From a bacterium (GTDB taxonomy: Bacteria; UBA8248; JACPRG01; G963555815): 64,000 nucleotides of DNA. Below are positions 3,220 through 58,653 of this stretch, in pieces. The stretch covers positions 960,001-1,024,000 of the forward strand of contig OZ244653.1 of assembly GCA_965218795.1 (NCBI GenBank), read 5' to 3'. The first letter of the stretch is position 1; every line of letters begins with the position of its first letter. Made by a program: the position numbers and the translations under genes. The notes beneath the pieces are model-generated. The model saw only the letters and a list, made by a program, of their open reading frames with translations, ran no database searches and was not told where the DNA came from.

Positions 3220-5520
3220 ATGAGTTCCGGTTTTCTCCTGAATCCAAGGTTTTTCGGTGCGAGCGTCCCCCGTGTGGAAGACGATCGTCTTCTGAGGGGC
3301 GCCGGCAACTTTGTCGATGACATCGCCGCGCCGGACGCGCTTCACACCGCATTCCTCCGCTCCCCCTACGCCCATGCCCGGATTGAGTCCATCGACGTTT
3401 TGGGCGCTCTGGAGTGCGGAGCCGTCGCCGCCTGGTCGGCGGGGGATTTGGGCCCCTTCTGGAAGGAATACCCCTCCCCGTCCCGCCCGATCCATTTCTT
3501 CGGCCCCGCAACACCGTGCCGCTGGCCAAGGAAAGGACTCGATACGTCGGAGAGCCGGTGGCCGTGGCTTTGGCCGAGAGCCGGGCCGCGGCGGAAGACG
3601 CGCTGGAAGGGGCGCCGCTCGTCCATGAGGATCTCGGGGACAACCTGGCGGCGCGGCTGGAAATCAACGTGGGAGACGCCGAGGCGGAATTGGATCGCGC
3701 CCCGCGCCGGGAGCGGATGCGGCTCGTTGTCCAGCGGGCGGGCGGCGGCGCGATGGAAGGCCGCGCCCTGTTGGCTCAATACGACCCCCGTCTCCGGCGC
3801 CTGACGGTCCACGCCTCCACCCAGACGCCCCACCTCCTGCGCCGCGACCTCGCGCTGATCCTCGATCTTCCCGAAAGCTCGGTGGACGTAATCGCCCCGG
3901 ACGTAGGCGGCGGGTTCGGCCCGAAAGCCTATACCTATCCCGAGGACGGGGTGGTGGCCTGGGCTTCCGTGCAGACGGGCAGACCCGGTGAAATGGATCG
4001 AGGATCGGCTCGAATACATCCAGGCCGACGTTCAAGAACGCGAGCAGGTCCACGATATCGAGTTCGGCTTTGACGACCAGGGCCGCGTCCTCGTGTTGAA
4101 GGACCGTTTTCTCAGCGACACCGGCGCGTTCGTCCCGTGGACGGTGATCGTCGCCATCCTGACGATCACGGGCATCCAGGGACCCTACCGAATCCGCCAC
4201 TTCAAGGGGGTCATGGAAGTCGCGCCTATACCCATCGCGTGCCCATCGCGCCGGTGCGCGGCGCGGGCCGCCCCCAGGTGCCCTTCGTGATGGAGCGCGT
4301 GATGGACCCCGTGTGGCCGCGGCACTGAATCTGGACCCGGCCGAGGTGCGCCGGCGAAACCTCATCCAGCCCGAGGAGTTCCCCTACGACGTGGGCCTTG
4401 TCAGCCAGGATGGAAATTCTTTGACGTATGACAGCGGCGATTACCCCGCCCTTCTCGGCAAGGCCCTGGAGGCAATAGGTTACCAGGAGTACCGGAAGAC
4501 CTCGGAAGCCGATCCGAAGGACAACCTGGAGAGACGCTATGTGGGCATCGGGGTCAGTTTCAACAACGAGCCCACGGGCCTGGGTCCTTTCGAAGGGGCC
4601 GTGGTCCGCCTGGAACCCGGCGGCGGGATTATCGTCCTGACCGGAACATCCCCCAACGGCCAGGGCCACGAGACCGTACTGGCCCAGTCATCGCCGATAT
4701 TCTCCGGGTCGCACCGGAGCGGGTGAAGGTGGAAACGGGTGACACCCGCAACATCCCCTACGGTATCGGCACCTTTGCCAGCCGCACGGCCGTGACCGCG
4801 GCCAACTCGGTCATGCTGGCGGGCGAAGCCCTTCGTGAAAAGGTCCTGAGCTTCGCGTCAACCTGTCTGGAAACCTCGGTCGAGGATCTGGAGATGGAGA
4901 ACGGGCAGGTCTTCGCCCGGGGGACGCCGGACCGATTCCTCTCCCTGGGGGAACTCGCAACGAGATCCATCGGGATGCCGGGCGTCACCCTGCGCGACCG
5001 GAAACCCGGCCTTGAAGCGTCGGAATACTACACGCCCGCCGACCCCGCGACCGCGGCCGCGTGCCAAGCCTGCGTCGTCGAGGTGGACGCACGGACGGGC
5101 CAGGTCAGGATTCTCCGCCACGTGATCGCCCACGATTGCGGGCGGATCATGAACCCGCAGACCGTGGAGGGGCAGACTCACGGCAGCCTGGTCCACGGAA
5201 TCGGCAATGCGTTGATTGAGGAAGTGGTCTTCGACGAGAACGGGACGCCGCTGGCCTCCACCTTTCTCGACTATCTCCTGCCGCTGGCAACGGACGTGCC
5301 CGACATCGAGATCATCCACCAGGAAAGCCCCTCGCCTTTTAATCCTCTCGGTGTCAAGGGAGCCGGCGAGGGCGGGATGATCGGCTCGTGCGCGGTCGTG
5401 GCTTCCGCCGTGGAGGATGCCCTTCGGCCTTTGGGTGCAGAAATCAGGGAAATCCCCCTCACGCCCTATCGTCTCTGGCACCTCATTCACCAGGGCAAGA
5501 TCTCGGTTCGATATCTCTAA
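3220..5520 (+). pseudogene. Xanthine dehydrogenase/CoxL-family molybdopterin-binding subunit, broken
   Basis: RVEDDRLLRG, RSPYAHARI, VGGGFGPK, APVRGAGRP, GQGHET, GTFASR and GVKGAGEGG are spread over several frames; segments also appear to be deleted. Confidence 0.85.
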
Positions 5521-6925: not shown

Positions 6926-8377
6926 TCACACCGCAATCGGGGGCCGGCGGTCCTTCCACGGCCTGGCCGCTTCAAGCTGCGCGGCGAGGCGGAACAGCAT
7001 GGCTTCCTCTCCGAACCGGGCGGCAAAGTGGACGCCGACCGGCAGATTCTCGCCATTCCAAAATAGCGGCACGGACATCGAGGGCTGTCCCGTGCCGTTG
7101 GAAATGTAGGTGAACGGCGAGAATGCCGCCGTCTTTTTGCGGACTTCCAGGGCCTCTTCGGGCTTGGCTCCATCCCGAATGGAAAACATCCCCAGCGGGA
7201 CAGGAGGCTGGCCCAGCGTCGGCGTCAGCCAGAGATCGTAATCCTCGAAGAACCGCGCGATGTTTCTCGATTCCCGCTGAACGTCCTGAACAGCGAGCAT
7301 ATACTCCGGCGCGGAGATATCCCTGCCACGCGCGCTGAAGGCCCAGACGAAGGGCTCGAAGGATTCCGAGGAGAGAGAGCGCCCGGTTCTTCGGGACCAG
7401 TCCTCCAGTCCCCAAGCCGTCCCCACCGCAAAGATGGACGTCATCGCCTGCCAGAACCCCTCCGCATCGTAGGACGGCTTCGCCTCCGTGACCTCGTGGC
7501 CCAATTCCTCACAGAGCTTGGCCGCATCTTCCACGGCGGCGACGCAATCGGAATGCAGCTCCGTGCCCAGCGGGGTTTGAGCCGCGTACGCGATACGCAA
7601 ACGGCCGGGGTCCGATCCGGCCTCTGCAAGAAACGGCCGGGCCGGAGGCGGCGGGCCATACGGATCGCCCGGGTCGGGGCCGGATACGGCGTCGAGAAAC
7701 GCCGCGCTGTCCCGGACGGACCGGGTCAGGACATGCTCGGCCACGACGCCGCTGAACAGGTCTCCGTAGTGCGGGCCCAGCGGATTTCGCCCGCGTGTGG
7801 GCTTCAGGCCGAACAGACCGCAGCAGGAGGCCGGAATGCGAATCGACCCTCCAGCGTCGTTGCCGTGCGCGATGGCGACCATCCCCGAAGTGATTGCCGC
7901 CGCGGAACCTCCGCTCGATCCGCCCGCGGTCCGTTCCGGGTTCCAGGGGTTTCGCGTGGGTCCGAACAGACGCGGCTCCGTTGACGCGCCGATGGCGAAT
8001 TCCGGAAGGTTCGTCTTTCCGATGACGATACAACCCGCGCGCTTCAGCCGCCTGACAAACTCGCTGTCCTCATCGGGCACATAATCCTTCAGGAAGGCCG
8101 ACCCTTCCGTGAAGCGAACGCCCGCGTATTCCGCGATGAAATCCTTGAGCAGGAAAGGAACGCCCCTGAAAGGGCCGGACGGGATTTCCCCCTTTGCCGC
8201 CGCGCGAGCCAGATCGTACATCGGGGTGATGACCGCGTTGAGCTGGGGGTTCAGGCGTTCCACGCGATCAATGGCCGCATCCACGAGGTCGCCGGGTTTG
8301 ATCTCTTGATTGCGAACCAACTCGGCCTGCGCCGTCGCATCCAGAAAGGCGAGCTCATTCATCGGAGTGTCCGTCAT
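6926..8377 (-). CDS. Amidase signature family enzyme
   Basis: [39 protein letters not shown]; RBS AGGAG upstream of ATG at 8377. Confidence 0.93.
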
Positions 8378-8795: not shown

Positions 8796-9302
8796 CCGAA
8801 CGACCCAATTCGGGGTATCGAAACCAGGGCCGAAGGCCCATCGAAACCATCAACCTGATCGTTAACCAAGATGCTTAAGAGGAAACCTTCAAGAGTGAAT
8901 CGCGTCCAAATTCTAATAATCTACATCATCTATATGAATATAACTCATTGTAATTAAATAACTTATAATGTAACAATTTAGGGTAATCTTGTCGGTATGG
9001 AACCAGGAATTTCGAGAGATCGAATGTGATTTCTCAAGGAATTCCCTTCTCCTCATCCATCACGTGCAATCGACCTTTGCGTAGAGACCGTTCGAAGGAA
9101 TCCCGATTTCATTGACTCATCAAGGCAAATCGGGGCATGATTCTGAAGACTTTTCCGGATTTGCCCAAGAACAATGTCTCCAGTTTTGATTCCGTATGTT
9201 TATATCCGCAATAAAGCCAGCCCATATTTTCGCGATTGGGTCGAAATTCAGGGGCGAAGAAATCGACCGCCGCGGACGCCTCTCCTTCAACAGGGGTGTC
9301 AA

Positions 9303-10256
9303 ATGATCCCTTCATACGGATCCCTCCGTAAGGCCATCGAGAAAAAAGACCGCGGGCTGCGGGAAAAGGTCTGCACCCTCACGGAGGCCGTCCGGCTCAT
9401 CCCCGACGGCGCCCACGTTGCCGTCGGCGGTTGCCACTACTCGCGGACTCCCATGGCCCTGCTTTGGGAGATCATTCGGCAAAAACGCAAGAACCTGACG
9501 GTTTCCCGAAGCATTACCAGCACCGAAGGGGACCTCCTCCTTGCAGGGGACGTCACCCGGCACATCCTCACCAGCTGGTTCAGCGCGGGCGTCACATGGG
9601 GCGTGTCCCGCGTCATGCGCGAATACGTCCAGTCCGGGAAGGCCCGATATGAAGAATGGAGTCACCTCAGCATCGGCCTCGGCTACCGGGCGGGCGGCAT
9701 GGGGGTTCCGTTCCTCCCCTCCCGTTCTGTCATGGGAAGCGGCATCGCGGATCGGCTCCCGGGCCTCAAGACGATGAATTGCCCTTATACCGGCGAGCCG
9801 CTGGCCCTCATCCCCGCCCTGAACCCCGATGTCGCCATTATCCACGTTCACCGCGCCGATCCTTACGGCAACGCGCAGATTGACGGGCTTCCCTTCATGG
9901 ACGCCGACATCGCGCTCGCCGCCGAGAGGGTCATCCTTTCCGCGGAACGCATCGTCTCCACCGAACAGATCCGCCGGGAGGCCGACCGGACCCTGATCTC
10001 CTTCTTGTGCGTGGAGGCCGTCGTCGAAACGCCTTACGGAAGCATGCCGCACGAATGCTACGGCCTCTATGAGCCCGCATTCGGTCACATTGACCAGTAC
10101 TGCAAGAGCATCGCCGCCGATGGAACCGCGGCCGCGAAGAAATACATCAGAGAGTGCGCCTACCAGCCCGGCTGTTGGGACGAATTTCTGCAAAGGCTGG
10201 GAACACAGACCCTGGTGGCCGCCTCCAGGGCGGGTGCGGAGGTTCACGGTGCCTGA
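9303..10256 (+). CDS. Family I CoA-transferase alpha subunit (GctA/PcaI-like)
   Basis: LTEAVRLIPDGAHVAVGG, PALNPDVAIIHVHRADPYGN. Confidence 0.85.
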   Translation: MIPSYGSLRKAIEKKDRGLREKVCTLTEAVRLIPDGAHVAVGGCHYSRTPMALLWEIIRQKRKNLTVSRSITSTEGDLLLAGDVTRHILTSWFSAGVTWGVSRVMREYVQSGKARYEEWSHLSIGLGYRAGGMGVPFLPSRSVMGSGIADRLPGLKTMNCPYTGEPLALIPALNPDVAIIHVHRADPYGNAQIDGLPFMDADIALAAERVILSAERIVSTEQIRREADRTLISFLCVEAVVETPYGSMPHECYGLYEPAFGHIDQYCKSIAADGTAAAKKYIRECAYQPGCWDEFLQRLGTQTLVAASRAGAEVHGA

Positions 10257-11025
10257 GCCGAGCGGTTATAACCCTCAGGAAATGATCTGCGTGATGAGCG
10301 CCCGGGCGCTCCGGAACGGCAACGTCGTATTCGGCGGCGCCGGGCTCCCTCTCGTCTCGGCCATCCTGGCCCAGAACACCCATGCGCCCCATCTCACCAT
10401 TCTCTTCGAAGGCGGCGTTATCGGCCCAAGGGTGATACCGGGCAGGCTCCCGCCCTCGACCAATGAAGCCCGCTGCGCCTGGGGGGCCAGCAAGGTGCTC
10501 TCCATCACGGACGTTCTTCTTCTGATGCAGCGGGGCTACGTGGATTACGGGTTCCTCGGAGGGGCGCAGATCGATCAATTCGGAAATCTGAACAGCTCCT
10601 TCATCGGGGATCCCGATGAGCCGAAGGTCCGCCTGCCGGGGACCGGCGGGGCCAATGACATCGCCAGCATGACCAAGGTGATCGTCGCCATGCGGCACGA
10701 GAAACGCCGGTTTGTGGAACGGGTGGATTTCATCACCAGCCCGGGTTTTTTGTCCGGCGGTCGGTCCCGAAAGCAGGCGGGACTTATCTCCGGGGGAGCG
10801 CACCTGGTCGTCACGGACCTGGGGGTGATGGATTTCGATTTGAAGGACGGAAGGATGAGGCTGAAATCGTTGCACCCCGGCGTAGCCGTCAAGACGGTCC
10901 GGGAGAGCACGGGATTCGAGTTGAAGATCCCGGACAGGATCCGCCGCACCAAGCCTCCCACGGCCAAAGAACTGTCCAGGCTTCGCGCATTGGACCCGGA
11001 CGGACGATATACCCGAAGGAATTGA
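10249..11025 (+). CDS. Family I CoA-transferase beta subunit (GctB/PcaJ-like)
   Basis: Catalytic-Glu region ILFEGG, FLGGAQIDQFGNLNS, RLPGTGGAND, VVTDLGVM; GTG start overlaps the alpha-subunit stop. Confidence 0.88.
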   Translation: MPEPSGYNPQEMICVMSARALRNGNVVFGGAGLPLVSAILAQNTHAPHLTILFEGGVIGPRVIPGRLPPSTNEARCAWGASKVLSITDVLLLMQRGYVDYGFLGGAQIDQFGNLNSSFIGDPDEPKVRLPGTGGANDIASMTKVIVAMRHEKRRFVERVDFITSPGFLSGGRSRKQAGLISGGAHLVVTDLGVMDFDLKDGRMRLKSLHPGVAVKTVRESTGFELKIPDRIRRTKPPTAKELSRLRALDPDGRYTRRN

Positions 11026-17948: not shown

Positions 17949-19379
17949 TCACTCCTCGCGGCCTCCGGCTTTGACCTCGGCGGGCGTCAGGTAATCGTCG
18001 ATATCGATTTCCTCGGCTCCCGGTACAATGAGCCGGTCGGGATATTCGTAGGGCAGGCCCATCGGGATCGTCGCGTCGATCCCCATTTTGGTCACCATGC
18101 CGTCCCGGGCCAGCCGCGTAATCGTGTAAGTTGTCGGATCCAGACGATTGCCGCGCGCGCCCGGGACCATCACAATATCCCGGTCGGCCACGACCCTGGT
18201 CGCAATGGCCCAGTTCACGTCGCTCTCGTTCTGGATATCGATATCCGGATCGACTACAACGACAAACTTCAAATAAGGACTCATGGACAGGGCGGCCAGG
18301 ATAACGTTCTTGGCATCCCCCTCGTTCACCTTTTCCAGAGCGACGTACGCCACGTACCGGACACCGGAATTCGGCAACGACACTCCGCGCACGGTCGGCA
18401 CAACCTTTTTCAATTCGGAGAGCAGGAACCCCTCGCTGAGCGGCGTCTGGATGTACAGGTGCTCGATGACGATCCCCACGTTCTGGTACAAGGCGTCACG
18501 CCGACGGGTGATGGCCGTGACCTTGATTTCCGGCGCATCCACGATCTGCCCGTAATACTGATGGAACTCCCCGAAGGGGCCTTCGGTCTGTCTGACCTTT
18601 GGAAGGAGCTCGCCTTCGATTACGATCTCCGCATCCGCAGGCACTTCCAGGGGAACGGTCTTGCAAGGAACCAGCTCCAGCGGCTCTCCCAGCAAGCCCC
18701 CGACGATTGCGTATTCATCTTCGCCCATCGTGTCCGTGAGGGGGCTGACGGCGCCGATGTGCAGGGATGGGTGGGCTCCCAGGACAATCGCAACCGGCAA
18801 GGCCTGGCCTTTGTCTTCGCAATGCTTATGGGCGTATTGAAGGTGTTTCCCCCAGCTGTAATAGATGCCGAGGCGATCCGGCCCCAGGAACTTGTGGCGA
18901 AAGATCCCCAGGTCGCGGTGGCCCGTCTCCGGATCAACGGATACGGTTACGCCAATGGTGATATAGGGCGCGTCATCCTGTTCGCTGTGCGTGATGATGG
19001 GCAGTTTCGTGAGATCGACTTCATCTCCAGTCCACACGATCTCCTGGACCGGGGCCGCCTCGGCTTTCTTTCCTTCGAGAACGACAGGCGGAATCTTTTC
19101 GCCCATGCGTTCCGCGATGGCCTCAGAGAGTCCCGGCTCCGGCAGGTTCAGGGCGAGGGCATACTTCCTTCGATCGGCCAGAACGTTGGTGACCACCGGC
19201 ATCTCGAACCCGCGGACGTTCTCGAACAGGACCGCGTTATATCGCCCGAGCAGGTCCAGTTTTCGCACGAAGGCCGAAATTTCGTAGACGGGTGATACTT
19301 CCCGCTCGATTCGCAACAAATCGCCGGGACAGCATGCTTCCAACTCGGCCAGAAACGATCTGAGATTCTGCGCCATCAT
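17949..19379 (-). CDS. UbiD-family prFMN-dependent (de)carboxylase
   Basis: GIFRH, VPADAEIVIEG, EGPFGEF, VVVVDPDIDI, LDP, KMGIDAT. Confidence 0.92.
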   Translation of the reverse strand: MMAQNLRSFLAELEACCPGDLLRIEREVSPVYEISAFVRKLDLLGRYNAVLFENVRGFEMPVVTNVLADRRKYALALNLPEPGLSEAIAERMGEKIPPVVLEGKKAEAAPVQEIVWTGDEVDLTKLPIITHSEQDDAPYITIGVTVSVDPETGHRDLGIFRHKFLGPDRLGIYYSWGKHLQYAHKHCEDKGQALPVAIVLGAHPSLHIGAVSPLTDTMGEDEYAIVGGLLGEPLELVPCKTVPLEVPADAEIVIEGELLPKVRQTEGPFGEFHQYYGQIVDAPEIKVTAITRRRDALYQNVGIVIEHLYIQTPLSEGFLLSELKKVVPTVRGVSLPNSGVRYVAYVALEKVNEGDAKNVILAALSMSPYLKFVVVVDPDIDIQNESDVNWAIATRVVADRDIVMVPGARGNRLDPTTYTITRLARDGMVTKMGIDATIPMGLPYEYPDRLIVPGAEEIDIDDYLTPAEVKAGGREE

Positions 19380-19430
19380 TCAATCCTTTCTCACTGTCCG
19401 GCCTTCCTTTGCTCTTGGAGGACGGAGCCG

Positions 19431-20828
19431 TCAATCGAGGCTGTCCGTCCACTCTTCCAGGTATTCGTCCAACTTGACGTTTTCAGTTCCCGGGATCTTC
19501 GTCGGTTCGGGGATTGGATACGGCAATCCAATGGGTGTCGTGGCGTCGATGCCCAGACGGGTCACCATCCCTCCTCGCCCGCGCCGGGTGATCTCATACG
19601 AGGTTGGGTCCTCCGGGTCGCCGATCACGCCGGGAACCATGAAGAGGTCTCGATCCGCCACCACCCGCGTGGCCATCACCCACATGACCTCCCGGTCGAC
19701 TTCCAACGCGATGTCCCGGTCCACAGCGAAGACCGTCTTCACCTCCGGGATGCCGCCGAGCGCGGCAAGAATGGCCTTCTTCCCCTCCCCCATCTTTTTC
19801 TGGTCCACCTGGACGTAGGCATGATACCCGTTGGTGATCGCCGGGATCCGGACGTCGATGACCGCGGGGACGGCCGCCTTCACCGCCCTCAAGGCCTCCG
19901 CCTCGCGAATCGGCGTCGGGAGAAACCTTCGCTCGCCGAAAATCCCGGCCGCCTGGAAGATCGCGTCCTTCCGGCGCGTGAGGGCCGTCACCTCCAGCAC
20001 CGGGACCGTCCTCTCCGAACCCTCATATCCGATGGGGGAAGCCGGGGCGGTCAATGTCCGCGTCCTTTCCGGAGATACCGCGCCTTCGATGACGATTTCA
20101 GCGTGAGCCGGGACGGGGAGGTCGCCCGTGACCGTTCGGGTGACGGGACAGGACTCTCCCATCAGCGATCCGATGCGTCCCAAGGATTCGGACCCGTCCG
20201 CCCCCGAGGCGGCGCACAGATAGAATGACGGGTGCATGCCGATCACAAGGGCCACTTCCAGAACCTCTCCTTGATCGCCCGCGGCTTGGAGGCAAGCGGC
20301 CAATGAAGAATCTTCGGCGGCGAGGATCCCCACATGCCGGCCGTCAAGCCGGACGATCCGGGGGAGACTCACCGTCACCGCGCCCGATTGCGGATTTCGG
20401 GCGACAGCAGCGCCCATGAGAAGACTCGGCGCGGAGTCTGATTCGGCATGGGTCAGGATTGGCAGGTCTGCAAGATCGACCTCATCCCCCGTGCGCTTCA
20501 CTTCATGAACGGGTCCGGTCTGCACCTGAACGGGGGGAAGGATCCGGTCCAGCCTGTCCCTCAGGATCTTCCCGTAATCCCTGGATTCCGAAGTGAGGCC
20601 CAATGCGAGACATACCCTGTCGCGATTCGTTATGACGTTTCCGACGACGGGAATGGAGCTTCCCTCGACGAACGGGAAGTGAACGGCTGCGCCCTTCTTC
20701 TCCCTTCTCGTCTTCTCGAGGATCGCGGAAATCCCGTGCTTTGGAGAGACCGCCTTGTCGACCTGAAGGAAGGCCTCGGGCAACTCCGCCTGGAGCGTGC
20801 TCAGATAGGTTCTAAGAGATTGGGGCAT
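19431..20828 (-). CDS. UbiD-family protein lacking the catalytic E-x4-E motif
   Basis: VPAHAEIVIEG, VDRDI and RLGIDAT are retained, but TLTAPASPIG replaces EGPFGE. Confidence 0.85.
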   Translation of the reverse strand: MPQSLRTYLSTLQAELPEAFLQVDKAVSPKHGISAILEKTRREKKGAAVHFPFVEGSSIPVVGNVITNRDRVCLALGLTSESRDYGKILRDRLDRILPPVQVQTGPVHEVKRTGDEVDLADLPILTHAESDSAPSLLMGAAVARNPQSGAVTVSLPRIVRLDGRHVGILAAEDSSLAACLQAAGDQGEVLEVALVIGMHPSFYLCAASGADGSESLGRIGSLMGESCPVTRTVTGDLPVPAHAEIVIEGAVSPERTRTLTAPASPIGYEGSERTVPVLEVTALTRRKDAIFQAAGIFGERRFLPTPIREAEALRAVKAAVPAVIDVRIPAITNGYHAYVQVDQKKMGEGKKAILAALGGIPEVKTVFAVDRDIALEVDREVMWVMATRVVADRDLFMVPGVIGDPEDPTSYEITRRGRGGMVTRLGIDATTPIGLPYPIPEPTKIPGTENVKLDEYLEEWTDSLD

Positions 20829-28985: not shown

Positions 28986-29204
28986 CGATGCCACAACGGA
29001 GGGATAATTAAACGAGTGGAATGAAGCTTGAGCGAACGCCCGCGCGCACAGGCGCGCCGGGCGTTTGTTATGAGTTCAACGTCTCGCGGGTCTTTTTCTC
29101 CGGAACCACGCGAAATCCTTCGATTCCGAATCCCAATGGTCCGGCGGACGGGCCTCCGATGGGGCGAATCGCCGACCTATAACTACCAACGAGAGTGCCT
29201 TCGG

Positions 29205-30092
29205 ATGTTCAAGACGATAGAAGACCTTCAGGAGCAGTTGCGAACAAAGAATTATATCGCGGACCGGCAACTCGCCACGACCATGTTCCTTTCCACGGAA
29301 ATGAGGAAGCCCATTTTCCTGGAAGGGGAAGCGGGTGTCGGAAAAACCGACGTGGCGAATGTGCTGGCCGATATCACGGGTTCCCAGCTCATTCGTCTCC
29401 AGTGCTATGAAGGTCTGGACGCCAACACGGCACTGTATGAATGGAACTACGCGAAACAGCTCCTTCGCATCAAGATGGAGGAAGCGACGGGGGGTTCGAG
29501 GCAGGTGCTGGAGGAGACCATCTTCAGCCCGGAATTTCTGGTTTCACGTCCCCTGCTCCAGGCCATCCAGGACAGCAACGACCAATCTCCCGTGCTCCTC
29601 ATTGACGAGGTGGACCGGAGCGACGAGGAGTTCGAGGCGTTCCTCCTGGAGATACTCGCGGATTTCCAGATCTCCATTCCGGAGATTGGCACCATTCGGG
29701 CGAAGCATAAACCTTACGTGATCCTCACATCCAACCGGACCCGCGACGTTCACGACGCCCTGAAGCGCCGTTGCCTGTACCTGTGGATCGATTATCCGAC
29801 GTTCGACAAAGAGCTGGAAATCGTTCAGGTCAAGATGCCCGGCATCGGCGAGTCGCTGGCGCGCCAAATCTGCAACTTCATGCAGGGGTTTCGCGAAGCC
29901 GACTTTTACAAGAAACCCGGAATCGCCGAAACGCTCGATTGGGCTACCGCCTTGGTGACCCTCCACAAAAACGATCTGGACACCGCTGCGGTCAACGACA
30001 CGCTGGGGGCGATCTTCAAGTATCAGGAAGACGTGATTCGCGCGAAGGAAGAAGCCGTCCCCATGCTGATGAGCCGTTACGCGGGGGAGTAA
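29205..30092 (+). CDS. MoxR/CoxD-type AAA+ ATPase
   Basis: EGEAGVGKT, RLQCYEGLD, LLIDEVDRSDEEFEAFLLE, TSNRTRDVHDALKRRC. Confidence 0.92.
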   Translation: MFKTIEDLQEQLRTKNYIADRQLATTMFLSTEMRKPIFLEGEAGVGKTDVANVLADITGSQLIRLQCYEGLDANTALYEWNYAKQLLRIKMEEATGGSRQVLEETIFSPEFLVSRPLLQAIQDSNDQSPVLLIDEVDRSDEEFEAFLLEILADFQISIPEIGTIRAKHKPYVILTSNRTRDVHDALKRRCLYLWIDYPTFDKELEIVQVKMPGIGESLARQICNFMQGFREADFYKKPGIAETLDWATALVTLHKNDLDTAAVNDTLGAIFKYQEDVIRAKEEAVPMLMSRYAGE

Positions 30093-30096
30093 GCCG

Positions 30097-31389
30097 TTGC
30101 TCGAAGGTCAAGCCGCACCGGTCGCCGACGGAAAACGCAAGGTCCCCGTTCCGCGTGGAGCCCAGCACAGGGACTTCACACGGGACATGCTGGGCTTCTG
30201 CCGTGTCCTCCGAGAGAGGCAGGTGAAGGTCACGACAGGCCGGGTGCTGGATCTGTACAAGAGCCTTCAGCTCATCGACATGGCCCAGAAGGATGACTTC
30301 CGGTCGGCCTCCCGGGCCAACCTCGTTTCCAGCTACGACGAGCTGAAGGTATTCGACGAGGTGTTCAATGAGTATTGGGGCATCGAGCACGATGAGGAGT
30401 TCCCCGAAGGATTGGAAGGATGCGGCCCGGAGAGCGAGCCCCCGCCCATGGATATGGACGGATGCGGACCGGAGGGCGAAGACCAGGGTCAGGAAGGCGA
30501 TCAGGAAGGTACCGAGGAAGAAGGAGAAGGCCAGGGCGAAGAGGAAGAGCTTTTCATGCTGGACGACGAGGAGGGCGCGGAAGGGGAAGAGGGCGATGAA
30601 TCCGGAGAAGAGGACAACCTTCCCAGCTACAGCCCCTTTGAAGTGCTTTCCGTCAAGGATTTCGGGAACATCAAGGATGAAGAAGTCGTCGAAATTCGCA
30701 AGCTCATCGCCGAGCTGGCTCCGAAGCTCGCAACGCGGCTCAGCCGGAGAAAAACCGCAACGCCTCAAAAGAAGCTGGTCGATATGCGGCGGACCATTCG
30801 GAAAAATCTCCGGTTCGGCGGCGAAATCGTCAACCTGTTTCACCGCAAGCAGAAGATCAAAAAGAACGACCTGGTCCTGTTATGCGACGTGAGCGGTTCG
30901 ATGGACGCGTACAGCCAGTTCCTGGTCCAGTTCATCTACGGCCTGCAGAGCGAGATCAAGAACATCCAGACGGCGGTCTTCAGCACGCGCCTGACCATCG
31001 CCACCCCGCACCTGAAAGAACGGGATCTCTACAAGGCGCTCGCCCGTCTGGCCGAAAAGGTGCACGACTGGTCGGGCGGCACCAACATCGGCGGATGCCT
31101 GAAGACATTCAACGAGCGCTGGGGGACCATGATGGTCTCCAAGCGGACGATTGTCATCATCATCAGCGACGGGTGGGACCGGGGCGAGATCGATGTCCTG
31201 GAACGCGAGATGCGGCGCCTGAAGAGCCGGGCCCGTCGGGTGATCTGGCTCAACCCCCTGCTGGGCAGTCCCGGGTACAAACCCATTGATCGGGGGATGC
31301 GCACCGCCCTTCCGTATCTGGACCAGTTCCTTCCCGCGCATAATCTGAAGTCCCTGACCGTCCTGGCGGAATCTCTGAGCCTCGAATAA
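30097..31389 (+). CDS. CoxE-type VWA domain protein with long acidic linker
   Basis: LCDVSGSM, WSGGTNIG, IISDGWDRG, IWLNPL. Confidence 0.92.
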   Translation: MLEGQAAPVADGKRKVPVPRGAQHRDFTRDMLGFCRVLRERQVKVTTGRVLDLYKSLQLIDMAQKDDFRSASRANLVSSYDELKVFDEVFNEYWGIEHDEEFPEGLEGCGPESEPPPMDMDGCGPEGEDQGQEGDQEGTEEEGEGQGEEEELFMLDDEEGAEGEEGDESGEEDNLPSYSPFEVLSVKDFGNIKDEEVVEIRKLIAELAPKLATRLSRRKTATPQKKLVDMRRTIRKNLRFGGEIVNLFHRKQKIKKNDLVLLCDVSGSMDAYSQFLVQFIYGLQSEIKNIQTAVFSTRLTIATPHLKERDLYKALARLAEKVHDWSGGTNIGGCLKTFNERWGTMMVSKRTIVIIISDGWDRGEIDVLEREMRRLKSRARRVIWLNPLLGSPGYKPIDRGMRTALPYLDQFLPAHNLKSLTVLAESLSLE

Positions 31390-34003: not shown

Positions 34004-34073
34004 TACGGACGTGATCGTCACAAATCAAGACCCTTGGTCCATTTGACAAGCCCACCGAAAAAACTCTGACTCC

Positions 34074-35414
34074 TCAAAGAACGCCTTCCGGCCAACCGCT
34101 TGCAGCAGAATGGTCAGCCGTGTCGGCTCCCTCAACCACCATCCCGGGGGTAATCGTGAATCGCAGGGCCTGATGGGCCAAGCGGAGCGCGCTCTCGGTC
34201 TCCCCGGGTGTGGCGCCCCGGGAGAAGATGAATCCGAGATAACTATCCCCTTCCGGAAGCGGCACGAGGATCTGACGAGGCTTGGCCGTGATGACCACGT
34301 CCTCCACCCCGTTCAACCGGCGCGCCTCATCGACACCCTCGACCCGCTGGAGGATGCCGCCCTGCGGAATCGGGATCATCATGACTCCCGCCGCCGCGTG
34401 CGGCATGGCCTTCCAATCGATGGACCAGCCGAGGGAGTGCCGAAGCACGATTTCCTCCAGAGACATCCCGCAGGCGGTCCGCAGGACCCTGGAACACAGG
34501 CCGCCAATGGGACGGGAGGCGATTTCCAGTACGTACACCCCTCCCTCGTTCACCCGGGCTTCGGCATGGACGGGGCCATGAAATAATCCAAGCGCCCTGC
34601 AGGCCTCCTCAACGGAGCGTTCAACAGCCGCCTGGGCCGACCGCTCAAGACGCGAGGGGGTCACATACAGGGTTTCTTCGAAGAATGGGCCGTCCAGGGG
34701 ATCGGGCTTGTCGAACAACGCCAGCGGCCTCAGTCGCCCGTCATCCATCAATCCCTCAAGGGAGATTTCCGCTCCTTCAATGAAGTCCTCGACGAGGATG
34801 GTTTCGTCCGCCGGATCCCTTCTGGCGCGAATCTCGGGCGCCTCCAGAATCTTTCTGATGCGATGGAACGCCAGCTCGAATGAACGGCAATCGTCCGCCC
34901 GGATGACGCCCCGGCTCGCACCCAGTCCCAAGGGTTTCAGAACGCATGGATAGCTCTGCTTTTTTGAATGCGATTCCGGATCGGTCCAGCCGGGTACCGG
35001 AGTGAACTTCGGGACGGGGAGCCCCGCCTCAAGGAACGCACGCCTCGACAACAGTTTGTTCCTCGCGGCCGCGGCCGCGTTCGGCGGATGGTGTCGGAGC
35101 CCCAACGCTTGGGCGGCCTGAGCGGCAACCACCGTTGGTCTGTCGCCGATGGGTATGACGGCGTCTATCGGTCTGTCGCGGGATGCGCTCAGAATCGCGC
35201 TCACGCATTGGTCCAGCTCTTCGAACCGCAAGGCGAGAGCGCCGTCGAGCCATGGGTCGTTGAGTACGTGACAACGGTCCGTCCCGATCAGGACATCCAG
35301 CCCCAGGGCGCTTGCCGCGTCCAGGAAATCCCGGGCCTGGTAGCCGGTGGTGGCATACAGGAGAAGAACCCGCGGGCGCCGCGAGCCCTCTGAGATGGAT
35401 GGGCGGGGGTTCAT
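34074..35414 (-). CDS. ATP-grasp domain protein (amino-acid ligase-like)
   Basis: RNKLLSR, PCVLKPLGLGASRGV, LVEDFIEG.E, HAEARV, LEIASR; ATG at 35414 lies 1 nt after the extended radical SAM stop. Confidence 0.88.
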   Translation of the reverse strand: MNPRPSISEGSRRPRVLLLYATTGYQARDFLDAASALGLDVLIGTDRCHVLNDPWLDGALALRFEELDQCVSAILSASRDRPIDAVIPIGDRPTVVAAQAAQALGLRHHPPNAAAAARNKLLSRRAFLEAGLPVPKFTPVPGWTDPESHSKKQSYPCVLKPLGLGASRGVIRADDCRSFELAFHRIRKILEAPEIRARRDPADETILVEDFIEGAEISLEGLMDDGRLRPLALFDKPDPLDGPFFEETLYVTPSRLERSAQAAVERSVEEACRALGLFHGPVHAEARVNEGGVYVLEIASRPIGGLCSRVLRTACGMSLEEIVLRHSLGWSIDWKAMPHAAAGVMMIPIPQGGILQRVEGVDEARRLNGVEDVVITAKPRQILVPLPEGDSYLGFIFSRGATPGETESALRLAHQALRFTITPGMVVEGADTADHSAASGWPEGVL

Positions 35415-35415
35415 A

Positions 35416-36816
35416 TCAAATCGGAGCCAACTGCTCCTCCAGAGGCTCCGCTCAGCAGTACCAAGGCTCGGTGAGGAAAGGAATTGCGGCCGGAGAGGGT
35501 AAAAGCGGGAGGTCGGGGAGATACTGAACCTCGATCCCTTCGGCCCGATGAGCCGCTCTCCAGACCCGTGCAAAGACTTCGCGGCGGCTCAGGCCCGCTT
35601 CACCGCCCTTTTGGACAATGTCCAGGACTTCGCGGTGAAGCGCATCCACGCGGGCGTCCTCGTGCCGCCAAGTCCAGCTCAGCAGTGAAGGATCGAATCC
35701 TTCCAGGGCTTCCCTGACCTCACCGAGTTCCAGCAGCCGGGAACCCGCGGGGATCAGGAGCCGAATCGCCAGCTGAACGGGAGAAACATGCCCCACCAGG
35801 TCCAACTCGATCAGCAGAGAGAGAAGGTCTCGATAACCCTTCAACGTGGTCCAGGGAGTGAAAGTCACGAAGGTCGGATTCAGATTCATCCCGATGTCCC
35901 TGAACATCCCGACGGCGCGGACAAAATCGTCGCGTGTGTGCCCCTTGTCGAAAATCTCCAACACCCTGTCGTCAATGGCCTCGACCGCACTGGTCACAAA
36001 GCCGCAGCCGGTATCCCGCAAGACGGTCAACTGATCCGCGTGCTTCAGAAGGTGCTCCACTTTGATCGTGACGTCGTAGGTCAAGTCCGGATGTGCGGCA
36101 TGCAGCTCCCGAACCAGGGAGAGAGCGTGCCGAATCCCATTGAAAAAATCCGGATCTCCGAATGTGATGTGCCGCGCTCCATGGTCCACCTGCCTCCGGA
36201 TGTCTTCCAGAACGATGTCCCGCTGGACCACCCGAAAGGCCCCCTGATACACGGGAACGACCGGGCAGTGCCGGCATAAGTGCTTGCAGCCCCGGCTGGC
36301 CTCCGTGTACCCGACGGTGCGCGTTTGGCCGTTTCCCAAGTCCAGTCCGGCATAGGAGACCAGGTCCGGCAGATCGCTTCGGTCGGGAACCTTGAACTGG
36401 AGACGCTCCATGCCGATCCGGGTATTCCCGGGAGTGTTGCCGCTCTGTCCCGAACCGAGTTGACGGGCGAGCGCGGCGAGGTCCTTCTCGAACTCACCGC
36501 CCAGAAGGGTCTGTACGCCCAGGCCGCGAAGGTAATCGGCATTGACCGTGGCATAGAGACCGTAAAAGCAGATGTGCGCATTCGGGTTCAGCGACTGGAC
36601 ACGCCCCAGCACGCTGACCGCGATCCTCGTGGCCGTGTGCATGGGGACGTAAAAAGCGACCAGATCGGCCGCTCGAACCGGCTCTTCGAGCAACGGGAGA
36701 ACGGACAGATCCTGGCAGGTGACGTCCACGCCCTCCCGCCGGAGCCACCCGGCCGGAGAAGCCAGCCCGAACGGCTGCCTGCCAAGGTCATAGGTGGAGA
36801 TCAATACGACCTTCAT
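35416..36816 (-). CDS. CUAEP-tail radical SAM selenoprotein with N-terminal B12-binding-like domain; UGA at 35452-35454 read as Sec
   Basis: ASRGCKHLCRHC radical SAM motif. The tail reads ...LTEPWYC-TGA-AEPLEEQLAPI-stop(35416), with a hairpin CGGAGCC..GGCTCCG just after the UGA. Confidence 0.88.
35422..35451 (-). promoter_or_regulatory. Putative bacterial SECIS hairpin
   Basis: mRNA UGA-G-CGGAGCC-U-CUG-GAGGAG-CAG-UU-GGCUCCG. Confidence 0.6.
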
Positions 36817-36939: not shown

Positions 36940-37221
36940 TCACCCTTTTGACTGGGGGGGGATATACCCCTCAGGCATCGCGGCGCCTTCGCCGAAGAAA
37001 TACTCATCGACCGATTTTTCGAATATTTCATCGGTTGAATCATCCATGAGGTTCAACCGGTATTCGTTCACGACCATCTTGAAATACTCGAGAAACATCT
37101 CCCAGCCTTCCGCGGACACGTTCTCGAAGACCTTTTGTCCCAGCTCTCCGGGAACGGGGGCTTCCGAAAGACCTGGGGCCTCCCGTTCCAACTTAACACA
37201 ATGGACCATCCGTATCGACAT
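36940..37221 (-). CDS. yggX: Fe(II)-trafficking / oxidative damage protection protein
   Basis: RMVHCVKLEREAPGL...PGELGQKVFENVS.EGW...MVVNEYRLN...EGYIPP. Confidence 0.88.
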   Translation of the reverse strand: MSIRMVHCVKLEREAPGLSEAPVPGELGQKVFENVSAEGWEMFLEYFKMVVNEYRLNLMDDSTDEIFEKSVDEYFFGEGAAMPEGYIPPQSKG

Positions 37222-37614
37222 GACGTCGCCTCCTGTCAAAGGACACGAAAACTGTTGCGTCCCCACCCATGATCTATGTATAACGATGTTCCCCGTCGTT
37301 CAAGGAAGCCTCCGGCAGCCTATGCCCCGCGCGGCGCCGGGGCGACGATGGAAAACCATTTTGACCCCGCCCCTTAAAAATTATAACATTTGGCTTGGGT
37401 ATACGTACCGGCGTACTCCCACCCAATAAACGCTCATGCAGGTTTTGTCGCTCGGCCGTGGGTCATGGAAATTCGGGGGAGTCTCGCAGGGCCACCCTGC
37501 CGTACGGCTCTCTTGCGTGACAGACGCGGCCGATATGCATTCGGTTCATTTTCCCAAGTTGCTGCCCGGGGCCTGTCAAGTCAACCGGGCATCGGGGTCT
37601 GGAGGATTCCCGTC

Positions 37615-38613
37615 ATGGCGAAGAAGAACCCCTCCACCATTGGCCGGACCATCCGGATTCGGGGAAATCTGGAGGGGGATGAAGACCTCGAATTCCTAGG
37701 GCGGATTGAAGGTGACCTGGACCTCAACGCCCACCACCTGTTGATAGGCGAAGGGGCCCAGGTGGACGCCAATATCCGGGGACGCGCCATCACAGTGGAG
37801 GGACAGGTCTCCGGGACGATCGAGCTGAGCGAGTTGTTGTGCGTCCAGGCGACCGGCTCCGTTTCAGGCGATGCCCATACCCCGCGGCTCCTGACGGAGG
37901 ACGGAGCCCGTCTTAACGGCCGCTTTGTCGTCGGGGCTTCGATGGACGGCGCGGGCCAGTGGATTCCGGACTTTGACCGCCTTCGCCGGCTCGTGCAATC
38001 TGAACTCCTCGGGGTGACCGATCAACATCTGGATTTTTCATCCAAGAGCCCGGACTGGGCGAGGTGGAGCATTCGGCGACAGGTGAGTCACATGGCCAAC
38101 AGCGTCTACTTTTGGCTCGTTGGCCGGTGGAAGGACGTTCTATGGGACAGAGTGGAGCCCGACCCGGAACTCGTCGAGATTGCCTTGGCCGATCACGGCC
38201 ATGACCGAATGCTCGACCCGTCCAGGTATCGGGACGTCCAGACGCTGCTCACAATGCTCAATCGATCGTACGATTTGATATATGAAGTGGCGGGCCGGGA
38301 AAGCGTCCAGTCCATCAGTGAGAAGAAGCTGACGCTCCATCTCGGCCCGGATGCCAGGGTGGGCGCCTCCGAGGAGAACGCGCATCAACTCTGGGAACGG
38401 TTCGGTCCGCTCCATGAGGGGGGCATCGTTCGGGACCCGCCGGACTCTTTTGCATGGACCTTCACGCTCGAGGCTACGCTTCGGCATCTCTATTACGAAC
38501 AACTCTCACACCTTCGTACCATCCATCGGCTGAAAAAGAAGCAGGGGCTTCCCTCTGTTGCACGGGTCCCCCGGGAGGGCTACCTCCAGTTCGACGGCTT
38601 CTGGAATGACTAG
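37615..38613 (+). CDS. Bactofilin domain fused to a DinB/DUF664-like domain
   Basis: N-terminal STIGRTIRIRGNL...GEGAQVDANI..VEGQVSG..EDGARLNG (bactofilin beta-helix); C-terminal WSIRRQVSH...LRHLYYEQLSH. Confidence 0.75.
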   Translation: MAKKNPSTIGRTIRIRGNLEGDEDLEFLGRIEGDLDLNAHHLLIGEGAQVDANIRGRAITVEGQVSGTIELSELLCVQATGSVSGDAHTPRLLTEDGARLNGRFVVGASMDGAGQWIPDFDRLRRLVQSELLGVTDQHLDFSSKSPDWARWSIRRQVSHMANSVYFWLVGRWKDVLWDRVEPDPELVEIALADHGHDRMLDPSRYRDVQTLLTMLNRSYDLIYEVAGRESVQSISEKKLTLHLGPDARVGASEENAHQLWERFGPLHEGGIVRDPPDSFAWTFTLEATLRHLYYEQLSHLRTIHRLKKKQGLPSVARVPREGYLQFDGFWND

Positions 38614-39109
38614 GGACTGTTAACGCTAGCGCAGGGCATCGACGATGAGCGCGAACGTCAGGGCCGTTCGAGCATCCGCGGCAACCAGATGAATCTTGGT
38701 GGTCCACCCGCCCCGGGACTGGCCGATGGACTGGGGGCCGTTTTTTGCAGCGCGCCCGTTCCGTCGGGATGGACCTTGACGAGGGTGCTGTCCAGCGACA
38801 CCGCCTCGAGCTGGATGCGCATGATCCGTTCCCGCTGCAGCTGCTCGAAGACCCGGTCGAGCACCCCGTTCCTGGACCAGCGGTTCATCCGGGTGTAGAT
38901 GGTGTGCCAGTTGCCGAACCGGGTCGGCAGCCCCCGCCACTTGCAGCCATGCTCGGCGACGTACAGGATGGCGTTGAGCACTTGCAGGTTCGACACGCTG
39001 ACGTTGCCGCGTTGCACCGGCAGGGAGGGCGCAATGCGTTCGTACTGAGCTTGGGTGATCTCCATCCGCAAAGGATAACATAACCCCACCCATTAGTGCT
39101 AACAGGCCC
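38613..39109 (-). mobile_element. IS5-family (IS427-like) element, internally deleted, with terminal inverted repeats and TA target duplication
   Basis: Ends TA-GGGACTGTTAACGCTA and reverse complement TA-GGGCCTGTTAGCACTA. orfA has GCKWRGLP..FGNWHTIY and LDST; an A6 shift site follows; orfB SRGGWTTKIH jumps straight to its C-terminus. Confidence 0.88.
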
Positions 39110-58041: not shown

Positions 58042-58653
58042 ATGCCCAGAATACCGTACTGCGATGAAGTGGAAACGCCGCCGGAGATGGTCCCGCTTTT
58101 CGAGGAGGCTCAACGGCAATGGGGCAACGAGCGGCCAAGGTACTTCCGGCTCTTCGGCCACGCCCCCGCCTTCGTCGAGGCCTGGCAGCTCATCGACCGG
58201 AAGCTTCGGCTGGACCGCTTGAAAGCGGGCGATTCTGAATTCGTCAAGCTGGAGCAACTGGCCATCCTCAGAACCAGCTATATCAACACCTGCAACAACT
58301 GAATCGGCCACAACGAGGAGCTCGGTCGGGCTCTCGGGTACACCGAAGAACATGTCGCTCTCCTGCAGGGGGACGACTGGCGGGACAGCGACCTCTTCAG
58401 CGAACAGGAAAAAGCGGTCATCGCGTGGTCCGAGGCGATCACGCGTCATACGGCCAAGGAAGACGAAGCCGCATTCCAGGCCATGCGGAAGCACTTCAAC
58501 GACCAGGATCTCGTCACCCTGACGATTTTTGCCGGGCTATGGAACTGCTCCAACCGCATCGCCGAGGCGCTCCACCTGCTGGTCGAGCCGCCCGGCGGCC
58601 GGATCGGGTTTCAGAAGGAAGACCTGAGAGTGTCGAAGGGCGAAACATCGTGA
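58042..58653 (+). CDS. AhpD/carboxymuconolactone decarboxylase-family selenoprotein (CxxU); UGA at 58300-58302 read as Sec
   Basis: ...ILRTSYINTCNN-TGA-IGHNEELGRALG...FSEQEKAVIAWSEAIT...LWNCSNRIAEAL...-stop at 58653; SECIS-like hairpin downstream of the UGA. Confidence 0.87.
58314..58336 (+). promoter_or_regulatory. Putative bacterial SECIS hairpin
   Basis: CGAG-GAGCUC-[GGUC]-GGGCUC-UCG starting 11 nt after the UGA. Confidence 0.65.

Follow-up and report, generated by a model that had tools for sequence, protein, structure and literature searches.

A UGA-containing gene of the CUAEP/CCAEP-tail radical SAM family and its amino-acid-ligase-type ATP-grasp neighbour

Layout of the locus

The 64-kb window analysed here (64,000 nucleotides of contig OZ244653.1, positions 960,001 to 1,024,000) carries a gene for a radical S-adenosylmethionine (SAM) protein that very probably contains selenocysteine (Sec), followed by a gene for an ATP-grasp ligase. 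Features of this locus lie on the minus strand. The radical SAM gene (35416..36816) encodes 466 residues including Sec and starts with the ATG at 36816 (MKVVLISTYDLG). Up to its first TGA the open reading frame (ORF) spans 36816..35455 and ends in TEPWYC, with Cys454 encoded at 35457-35455. The TGA at 35454-35452 continues in frame into GCG GAG CCT and the remainder of eleven open codons, which encode the tail AEPLEEQLAPI (35419..35451) and lead to the TGA stop at 35418-35416. Cys454 (TGC) and Sec455 (TGA) together form a vicinal pair at 35452..35457. A single T (35415) separates the read-through stop from the ATG (35414) of the ATP-grasp gene (34074..35414, 446 amino acids), leaving a gap of 1 nt with read-through and of 37 nt without it. 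The in-frame extension, the stop at 35416 and the 1-nt gap had been proposed in a sequence-only reading and are exact to the base. By our arithmetic the 11-codon open extension is not significant by itself, as about 0.6 are expected by chance. Since open extensions of this kind often arise by chance, the case for Sec rests on comparison across loci.

Family membership and conservation of the selenocysteine site

The read-through protein matches the NCBI model NF040546, "CUAEP/CCAEP-tail radical SAM (seleno)protein", with 619 bits against a cutoff of 500, protein residues 14-475 aligning with profile positions 1-467 of 468. The C-terminal C-(U/C)-A-E-P motif of the family is present as EPWYC-U-AEPLEEQLAPI. 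The radical SAM cluster motif CxxxCxxC is found as C177-K-H-L-C181-R-H-C184 (36265..36288); its three cysteines are invariant in 57 sequences and align with those of an ArsL-family protein, and Pfam Radical_SAM matches with 47.3 bits. The proposed membership in this named family is thereby confirmed.

A scan of species-representative (GTDB) genomes returned at least 588 confirmed loci, and the comparisons use the best 80 of them, of which 54 belong to Acidobacteriota. Cysteine followed by TGA or a Cys codon and then by AEP is present in 79 of the 80 loci, with TGA in 63 and a Cys codon in 16. The motif [ED]PW[YFH]C occurs in 78 loci, where it continues with TGA (62), TGC (12) or TGT (4) and has AEP in frame in every case; the 79th match (L055) reads ELWYC-TGA-AEP. 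A contig end cuts the tail of L049 after "AE". At L015 the tBLASTn match to the radical SAM protein (about 9100-9500) reaches the C-terminus, yet EPWYC-(TGA/TGY)-AEP is absent from every frame, which may reflect a frameshift or an assembly error. The conserved motif around the vicinal pair is (S/T)E(P/x)W(Y/F)C(U/C)AEPTxxQ, while the tail after the Gln is variable among loci and 11 to 38 residues long. On a FastTree phylogeny of the 79 loci and the window protein, computed with the tail left out, the Sec and Cys forms switch at least seven times, five of these switches being forced by well-supported branches.

The same pattern extends to protein databases. A search of a 90%-clustered collection gave at least 8000 relatives; among the best 120 database proteins, 107 stop exactly at W[FYH]C and 13 continue with CCAEPT..Q. 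After clustering at 50% identity, 582 clusters match at E <= 1e-30, and family members with identities as low as 32% retain the tail. The 74 cluster representatives of at least 430 residues comprise 35 with CC-AEP, 29 that stop at WxC and 10 others. The RefSeq entry of the cultured Thermomicrobium roseum likewise stops at the Sec codon.

An in-frame UGA aligned with Cys in homologues, with both flanks conserved (here AEP...Q on the 3' side), is the pattern by which selenoproteins are recognised, and it is the pattern observed across the 79 resolved loci. The alignment of homologues thus bears out two earlier proposals, namely that the UGA is a Sec codon and that the AEP tail is conserved. We are highly confident that the gene at 36816..35416 is a selenoprotein gene of the NF040546 family. 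The gene had also been described as a hidden selenoprotein. This is accurate with respect to ORF callers, but the family already carries the name "(seleno)protein" at NCBI and is mentioned in a 2022 preprint.

A hairpin specific to the UGA-containing genes

Folding, in every locus, of the 48 nt located 3' of the Sec or Cys codon identified a recurrent hairpin. Codons for tail residues 5-7 make up its 5' arm, and codons for tail residues 9-11 its 3' arm. Two sequence classes occur, GGAGC-AG(G/U)U(G/K)-GCUCC and GGGACC-AGUU-GGUCCC, with registers one base apart and with AGUU, AGUUG or AGGUG as apical loops. A single register for the whole family was rejected, as only 73% of cells are paired when the two classes differ by one base; because of this offset, each sequence was folded individually and compared with synonymous recodings.

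The local minimum free energy (MFE) across columns 13-38 is -10.48 kcal/mol in 62 TGA genes and -3.48 kcal/mol in the 16 Cys genes (Mann-Whitney p = 9e-10). When the genes were recoded synonymously, keeping the peptide, the mean z was -2.38 for the TGA genes and +0.16 for the Cys-codon genes, and the natural hairpin was more stable than 95% of its own recodings in 46 of the 62 TGA genes and in 0 of the 16 Cys genes. In the window, the hairpin GGAGC-AGUUG-GCUCC (35423..35437) has a recoding z of -2.95. According to a 2026 review (PMC13188914), bacterial selenocysteine insertion sequence (SECIS) elements have an apical loop of 3-9 nt with a G in its first two positions, a stem of 4-16 bp, a distance of 16-37 nt from the UGA and an MFE of at most -7.5. 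The window hairpin lies within these quoted limits, with a 5-bp stem, a 5-nt loop bearing G at its second position, the loop located 19 nt after the UGA, and a local MFE of -8.3 kcal/mol; it is also picked up by a scan for terminator-like structures. On this comparative evidence, the UGA at 35454-35452 is a predicted Sec codon, decoded with the help of the hairpin at 35437-35423.

A different structure, a perfect 7-bp stem directly following the UGA, had drawn attention in the sequence-only reading. The stem (35422..35450), formed by CGGAGCC (35450-35444) and GGCUCCG (35428-35422), is indeed present and perfect, and the 38 nt that follow the UGA have it as their MFE fold (-17.8 kcal/mol). Shuffled versions of these 38 nt average -10.7 ± 2.25 (z = -3.16), none of 200 being equally stable, and folding of a 76-nt frame instead yields z = -0.04. 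Across the family, however, the stem does not behave as a conserved SECIS element. Although 68.4% of cells are paired, 448 of 500 shuffles reach that value, there is no covariation, and the apical loop lies 12 nt from the UGA, outside the spacing limit; in the Cys genes, 53.6% of cells are paired. The 7-bp stem and the family hairpin have a common 3' arm and are mutually exclusive, the 5' arm of the stem being composed of the A-E-P codons. We take the 7-bp stem to be an alternative fold of some sequences and not a conserved signal.

Probable selenocysteine decoding in this organism

A scan of the window for other reading frames interrupted by TGA revealed a second candidate on the plus strand (58042..58653, TGA at 58300-58302), with the motif T-C-N-N-U (CxxU). 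Read through, it comprises 203 residues, and ORF callers would split it or truncate it at 86 residues. The product matches TIGR01926, "peroxidase-related enzyme" (AhpD-like), with 45 bits (E = 9.4e-12), below the cutoff of 81.8, and the match spans the TGA (profile positions 2-176 of 178). It also matches NF053654, "YciW-related (seleno)protein", and 21 nt past the UGA begins a hairpin with a GGUC loop. A single homologue was found in the database (P0275); over 195 residues that include the site it shares 48% identity, and it has Cys opposite the U. This second UGA gene is a probable selenoprotein gene. The presence of two independent genes with a UGA aligned to Cys within 64 kb suggests that the organism likely decodes UGA as Sec.

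Machinery for this decoding was sought near the gene. ARAGORN found no tRNA and Rfam no family at gathering score within the 64-kb window, and NCBIfam models detected no selA, selB or selD among its 51 ORFs. In the relatives, ARAGORN found no tRNA-Sec in loci L001-L060, with L061-L080 outside the scan.

The lack of Sec machinery genes within the window would fit a TGA that is a genuine stop, in which case the protein would end at Cys454 and the hairpin would be a terminator, an attenuator or a coupling element. ORF callers do end the gene at this TGA, as in 107 of the 120 best matches, and the terminator-like scan picks up the hairpin followed by GAUUUGAUAU. A true stop is nevertheless difficult to reconcile with an in-frame AEP tail in 79 of 80 loci, with a Cys codon in place of the TGA in 16 of them, with a hairpin that is under selection at synonymous sites in the TGA genes only, and with a second UGA/Cys-aligned gene in the same window. 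We consider termination at this codon extremely unlikely and treat the protein as a Sec-containing enzyme below.

Kinship to ArsL and the proposed chemistry

The runner-up model for the radical SAM protein is that of ArsL (NF040542), with 285.8 bits over profile positions 2-411 of 423; other radical SAM families score 36 bits or less. A plasmid search returned proteins with an RCCLKC tail from Bacillus and Priestia, of which the Bacillus cereus protein is 34.3% identical to the window protein (141 of 411 columns). In a MAFFT alignment the CC of the RCCLKC tail aligns with C454/U455, and the cluster cysteines align as well. The RCCLKC motif with its three arsenic-binding cysteines is absent from the window protein, only the vicinal pair being aligned, and the CUAEP family has about 45 extra residues ahead of the tail. 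The suggested relationship to ArsL, its closest characterised relative, is supported by both the model score and the alignment.

Two further cysteines (Cys83 and Cys271) do not vary in a set of 57 close relatives. They are missing from the distant CC-AEP members P0205 and P0243 and from the ArsL-like protein, so that the universal cysteines are those of the cluster triad and the vicinal pair. An auxiliary cluster bound by Cys83 and Cys271 was considered, and is weakened by the same absences.

An AlphaFold2 model with a mean predicted local distance difference test (pLDDT) score of 86.1 and a predicted template modelling (pTM) score of 0.88 consists of an N-terminal Rossmann-like domain, a radical SAM barrel and a helical C-terminal domain. 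The last ~35 residues are modelled with low confidence (pLDDT 56-63). Foldseek matched the model to AprD4, TsrM, OxsB, MiaB and MgmA, and a sequence search for solved structures found none closer than these. The fold resembles that of AprD4, listed as a cobalamin-free structure, as well as those of cobalamin-bound TsrM and OxsB; the Pfam B12-binding model gives the window protein 20.1 bits, against a cutoff of 32.1.

In ArsL, as described in 10.1101/2024.02.01.577332 and 10.64898/2026.04.29.721666, SAM is split into methylthioadenosine and a 3-amino-3-carboxypropyl (ACP) radical, which is joined to As(III) held on the C-terminal cysteines; when the tail is removed or mutated, the product is lost and SAM cleavage is kept. 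ArsL thereby forms a C-As bond through ACP-radical chemistry that is non-canonical and has been demonstrated recently. Because of the homology to ArsL and the position of the tail, we postulate a related chemistry for the CUAEP enzyme. The flexible Cys-Sec (or Cys-Cys) pair at its C-terminus would hold a soft atom X, which could be As, Sb, Se, S, Te or a thiophilic metal, and the enzyme would transfer the aminocarboxypropyl group from SAM to X. This would yield a methionine-like 2-amino-4-X-butanoate, which the co-translated ligase may couple to a second amino acid, while YggX or NfuA may keep the oxygen-sensitive cluster supplied. By this analogy the Cys-Sec pair would serve as a metalloid holder and the ligase would act on the product. 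We put this sequence of steps forward tentatively, as a reading that falls just short of what we would call probable.

The low-confidence and probably flexible tail with its vicinal Cys-Sec pair is also compatible with a redox arm. Here the pair would be a mobile redox or hydrogen-atom-donating centre, the enzyme would perform conventional 5'-deoxyadenosyl chemistry on an organic substrate, and the selenol would quench or reduce an intermediate. The Gly-Cys-Sec-Gly tail of mammalian thioredoxin reductase provides an analogy. Repeated switching between Sec and Cys, as observed here, is also a trait of redox selenoproteins, no more than two chalcogens are universal, and AprD4, TsrM, OxsB and MiaB, the top structural matches, are ordinary class-B-like radical SAM enzymes. 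Yet the closest full-length characterised homologue is ArsL, whose equivalent tail binds substrate, and a redox arm leaves the amino-acid-ligase partner unexplained. We regard it as unlikely, and retain ACP transfer to an atom held by the Cys-Sec pair as the working proposal.

The ATP-grasp ligase

The protein encoded downstream combines the Pfam domains ATP-grasp_4 (102 bits), LAL_C2 (55.8 bits) and ATPgrasp_N (33.9 bits), and reaches no NCBIfam model at cutoff. Its best match in the Protein Data Bank is the L-amino acid ligase (LAL) BL00235 (3vot, 7e-39), followed by BacD (7e-15). A table in the review PMC6920838 gives Met-Gly and Met-Met as the products of BL00235.

A ligase of the same kind accompanies the sister family. 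The RCCLKC-tail genes of Bacillus cereus (plasmid pBFR_2, L082) and Priestia sp. J2 (plasmid pA, L083) are located inside arsenic islands that encode ArsR, an aquaporin, a CobW-type GTPase and ArsB/ACR3. In the Priestia island these are joined by ArsN1, in a position taken by a GNAT N-acetyltransferase in the Bacillus cereus island. Both islands encode an ATP-grasp_4 and LAL_C2 protein 2-3 kb from the radical SAM gene, which is 24% identical to the window ligase over 241 residues (E = 6e-18). The proximity of an LAL-type ATP-grasp to the RCCLKC-tail genes indicates that both sister radical SAM families are accompanied by one kind of ligase, and raises the possibility that Bacillaceae ligate arsinothricin-like products into peptides. 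We also observed, in both islands, a small gene of the carboxymuconolactone-decarboxylase family in operon order with the LAL-type ATP-grasp and ArsR.

Some ATP-grasp enzymes act on peptides, and the tail itself might be the substrate, either modified by the radical SAM protein on its own C-terminal peptide or extended by the ATP-grasp enzyme in a manner resembling RimK or ribosomally synthesised and post-translationally modified peptides. The strong conservation of the motif around the pair and the coupling of the radical SAM stop to the ATP-grasp start would suit such a role. In its architecture (LAL_C2) and its resemblance to BL00235 and BacD, though, the ligase is of the free-amino-acid type, 31 of 80 loci lack it, and the residues beyond the conserved Gln vary in a tail of 11 to 38 residues. 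Modification of the tail is, in our judgement, very improbable.

Gene neighbourhood across relatives

Neighbours of the 80 loci were counted by tBLASTn with the window proteins, by clustering and by Pfam scans of adjoining ORFs. An ATP-grasp homologue (37-71% identity) is present in 49 of the 80 loci; among the 54 loci flanked by 3 kb or more of sequence on both sides, 35 have one. Of 63 loci with sufficient sequence, 36 carry it on the same strand and no more than 1 kb downstream, a rule that misses L031 and L036, whose ATP-grasp gene overlaps the radical SAM stop. Both forms are accompanied by the ligase (Sec, 25 of 41; Cys, 10 of 13), and the linkage occurs in five named phyla and in unassigned metagenome-assembled genomes (MAGs). 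Tested across relatives in this way, the ATP-grasp linkage proves to be conserved.

The window itself has yggX (36940..37209) 123 nt upstream of the radical SAM start. The gene encodes an Fe(2+)-trafficking / oxidative-damage protection protein, matching NF003817 with 107.4 bits (cutoff 74) and Pfam Iron_traffic with 106 bits. Alignment with 38 homologues places its likely start, MVHCVK, at 37209, while the mechanical ORF reaches a GTG at 37266. YggX is encoded in 39 of the 80 loci, upstream on the same strand in window-like and NC10 lineages and convergently, directly after the ligase, in Acidobacteriota. An NfuA-type gene (Fe-S_biosyn and NifU domains) lies directly upstream of the radical SAM gene in eight loci (L013, L017, L033, L038, L042, L044, L062 and L078; about 7330-7990), never together with YggX, in members of NC10, Latescibacterota, Calditrichota, Gemmatimonadota and Pseudomonadota. 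The link between yggX and the radical SAM gene, which had been offered as a possibility, is accordingly real and is strengthened by the replacement with NfuA.

A DUF169 gene is found in 13 of 80 loci, usually directly downstream of the radical SAM gene; in L004, L010, L022, L060 and L019 the ATP-grasp gene is downstream as well. For DUF169, the literature gave just incidental mentions, next to HgcA-like genes of Nitrospina and in a table of selenium co-occurrence, and no function. At least one partner occurs in 61 of the 80 loci. As a whole, the trio of radical SAM protein, ligase and YggX, with NfuA instead in some lineages and DUF169 added in others, is a recurring arrangement in at least five named phyla.

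Several other neighbours were observed. An aconitase gene lies upstream in 26 loci of Acidobacteriota, a linkage that we read as lineage synteny. The place of the ATP-grasp after the radical SAM gene is taken in L028 and L030 (Bryobacteraceae, about 9417-10773) by a 441-residue protein with a methyltransferase domain, recalling the order of ArsL and ArsM. Phage-integrase-family genes are located ~150 nt downstream of the radical SAM gene in L048 and L065, at the expected position of the ligase, which suggests that an insertion broke the ligase synteny. The Sec form also occurs in a cultured organism with a complete sequence, Thermomicrobium roseum DSM 5159, on whose megaplasmid (NC_011961.1, 7019-8500; L081) the neighbours, unlike those in the window, are a pyridoxal-phosphate-dependent aminotransferase, a major facilitator superfamily transporter and a fusion of GNAT and ATP-binding cassette domains, with no ATP-grasp within 7 kb.

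YggX and NfuA, mutually exclusive and beside the radical SAM gene in 47 of 80 loci, are one ground for considering a sacrificial insertion of sulfur or selenium as in LipA or BioB. An Fe-S or Se-loaded centre would be consumed to give a homocysteine- or selenohomocysteine-like amino acid, and NfuA or YggX would rebuild it. NfuA regenerates the sacrificial cluster of LipA (PMC13692748); in addition, the close relatives have the extra invariant Cys83 and Cys271, and the nearest solved ligase is Met-specific. With these two cysteines absent from P0205, P0243 and the ArsL-like protein, however, the universal ligands are too few to bind an auxiliary cluster, and tail-less ArsL kept the same Fe/S content according to the ArsL work cited above. 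The adjacency of YggX or NfuA may merely reflect cluster upkeep in aerobes. Sacrificial insertion is on balance improbable, and we continue to prefer an ArsL-like ACP transfer for this enzyme.

Weighing the proposed pathway

A number of observations weigh against the ArsL-like transfer and subsequent ligation. The window protein does not reach the 450-bit cutoff of the ArsL model, its tail offers two chalcogen ligands compared with the three of ArsL for arsenic, and, as the tail has pLDDT values of 56-63, no model puts it in the active site. No ars gene (arsM, arsQ, arsN, arsR, ACR3), exporter or resistance gene was found among the 51 window ORFs scanned, in contrast to the arsenic gene context around the Bacillus and Priestia RCCLKC-tail genes. 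The ligase is missing from the 31 loci mentioned above, where arginase-family and SelA-like proteins appear in Chloroflexia, and none of the four partners occurs in 19 of 80 loci, six of which are on short contigs. The neighbours are different in Chloroflexota, Actinomycetota and Bryobacteraceae (arginase-family, methyltransferase, GCS2, Mur-ligase-like), the GCS2 and Mur-ligase-like ones being seen in single loci. With 54 of 80 loci from Acidobacteriota, the neighbourhood counts are not independent events and overstate independence. Finally, housekeeping neighbours such as aconitase and glucose-6-phosphate dehydrogenase speak for a role in core metabolism more than for an antibiotic cluster.

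A broader hypothesis would place the locus in a widespread pathway present in bacteria of soil and groundwater (Acidobacteriota, NC10, Nitrospinota-like and others). In it, a Sec-armed ArsL-like enzyme would form a C-Se, C-As, C-Sb or C-Te bond by ACP transfer onto an atom held by Cys-Sec, dipeptide ligation would follow to give an as yet unrecognised organo-chalcogen or organo-metalloid metabolite, and YggX or NfuA would sustain the cluster. We consider this specific pathway doubtful.

NCBI curation already covers both the family and its status as a selenoprotein family, and the window gene is a further member. Apart from the mention in one 2022 preprint (10.1101/2022.07.06.499078), our literature search found nothing on the CUAEP/CCAEP-tail radical SAM family. 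That preprint lists NF040546 among rare CU-motif selenoproteins as uncharacterised and relates such motifs to the handling of heavy metals; neither the family name nor the accession appears in a 2026 review of prokaryotic selenoproteins. Within the literature searched, the additions made here are the description of the SECIS-like hairpin, the census of Sec and Cys forms, and the neighbourhood of ligase, YggX or NfuA, and DUF169. Gene callers truncate the CUAEP family at the Sec codon, as in 107 of the 120 best database proteins. The partnership with an amino-acid ligase and an Fe or Fe-S protein leads to testable questions about the identity of the alkylated atom and of the dipeptide formed. 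Should X be selenium or a metalloid, the locus would add a new branch to the organo-element metabolism of abundant soil phyla.

Other features of the window

A terminator-like hairpin lies 3' of the ATP-grasp stop (34028..34040, minus strand), identified by a consensus scan only. Elsewhere on the plus strand, two ORFs at 4313-4726 and 4723-5520 match consecutive parts of an aerobic CO-dehydrogenase / Mo-hydroxylase large subunit (profile positions 380-500 and 521-785) without the N-terminal part, and are possibly a fragmented or frameshifted gene. Also on this strand, an AAA-ATPase and VWA-domain pair at 29028-31389 resembles MadB and MadC, both below the curated cutoffs. The minus strand carries a tandem pair of UbiD-family decarboxylase genes (17949-20828) and an IS5-family transposase fragment (38658-39089), which covers the first 113 of 258 profile positions at 109 bits against a cutoff of 110 and lies just past a divergent bactofilin-domain gene (37390-38613).

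Comparison with known systems

C-terminal arms with vicinal Cys-Cys or Cys-Sec pairs are known from MerA and thioredoxin reductase. The window protein likewise has a vicinal pair on a terminal, probably mobile segment, as do HgcA, MerT and the SAO proteins with their CU motifs, and none of these proteins has sequence homology to it. Like the NfuA-LipA regeneration and YggX protection systems, the locus has a YggX or NfuA-type gene directly beside the radical SAM gene, but there is no sign of a sacrificial cluster in the window protein.

The ligase has the same ATP-grasp_4, LAL_C2 and ATPgrasp_N architecture as the L-amino acid ligases BL00235, BacD/YwfE, RizA and TabS, and differs in its partner, which is a radical SAM selenoprotein and not a classical antimetabolite pathway. 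With ArsL, the radical SAM protein shares a core that is homologous throughout the N-terminal Rossmann-like domain and the radical SAM barrel, as well as a C-terminal vicinal chalcogen pair that aligns with the CC of ArsL. The two differ in the tail, which is C-U/C-A-E-P...Q with two ligands in the window protein and R-C-C-L-K-C with three in ArsL, and in their partners, YggX, NfuA and DUF169 as opposed to ArsM, ArsQ and ArsN. The closest correspondence is with NF040546 itself, whose NCBI-named members include hits from MAGs of Nitrospinota, NC10, Dehalococcoidia and Alphaproteobacteria and from Thermomicrobium roseum: the window protein shares the full-length match, the CxxxCxxC motif and the C-U-A-E-P tail with this family, and no feature separates it from the family.

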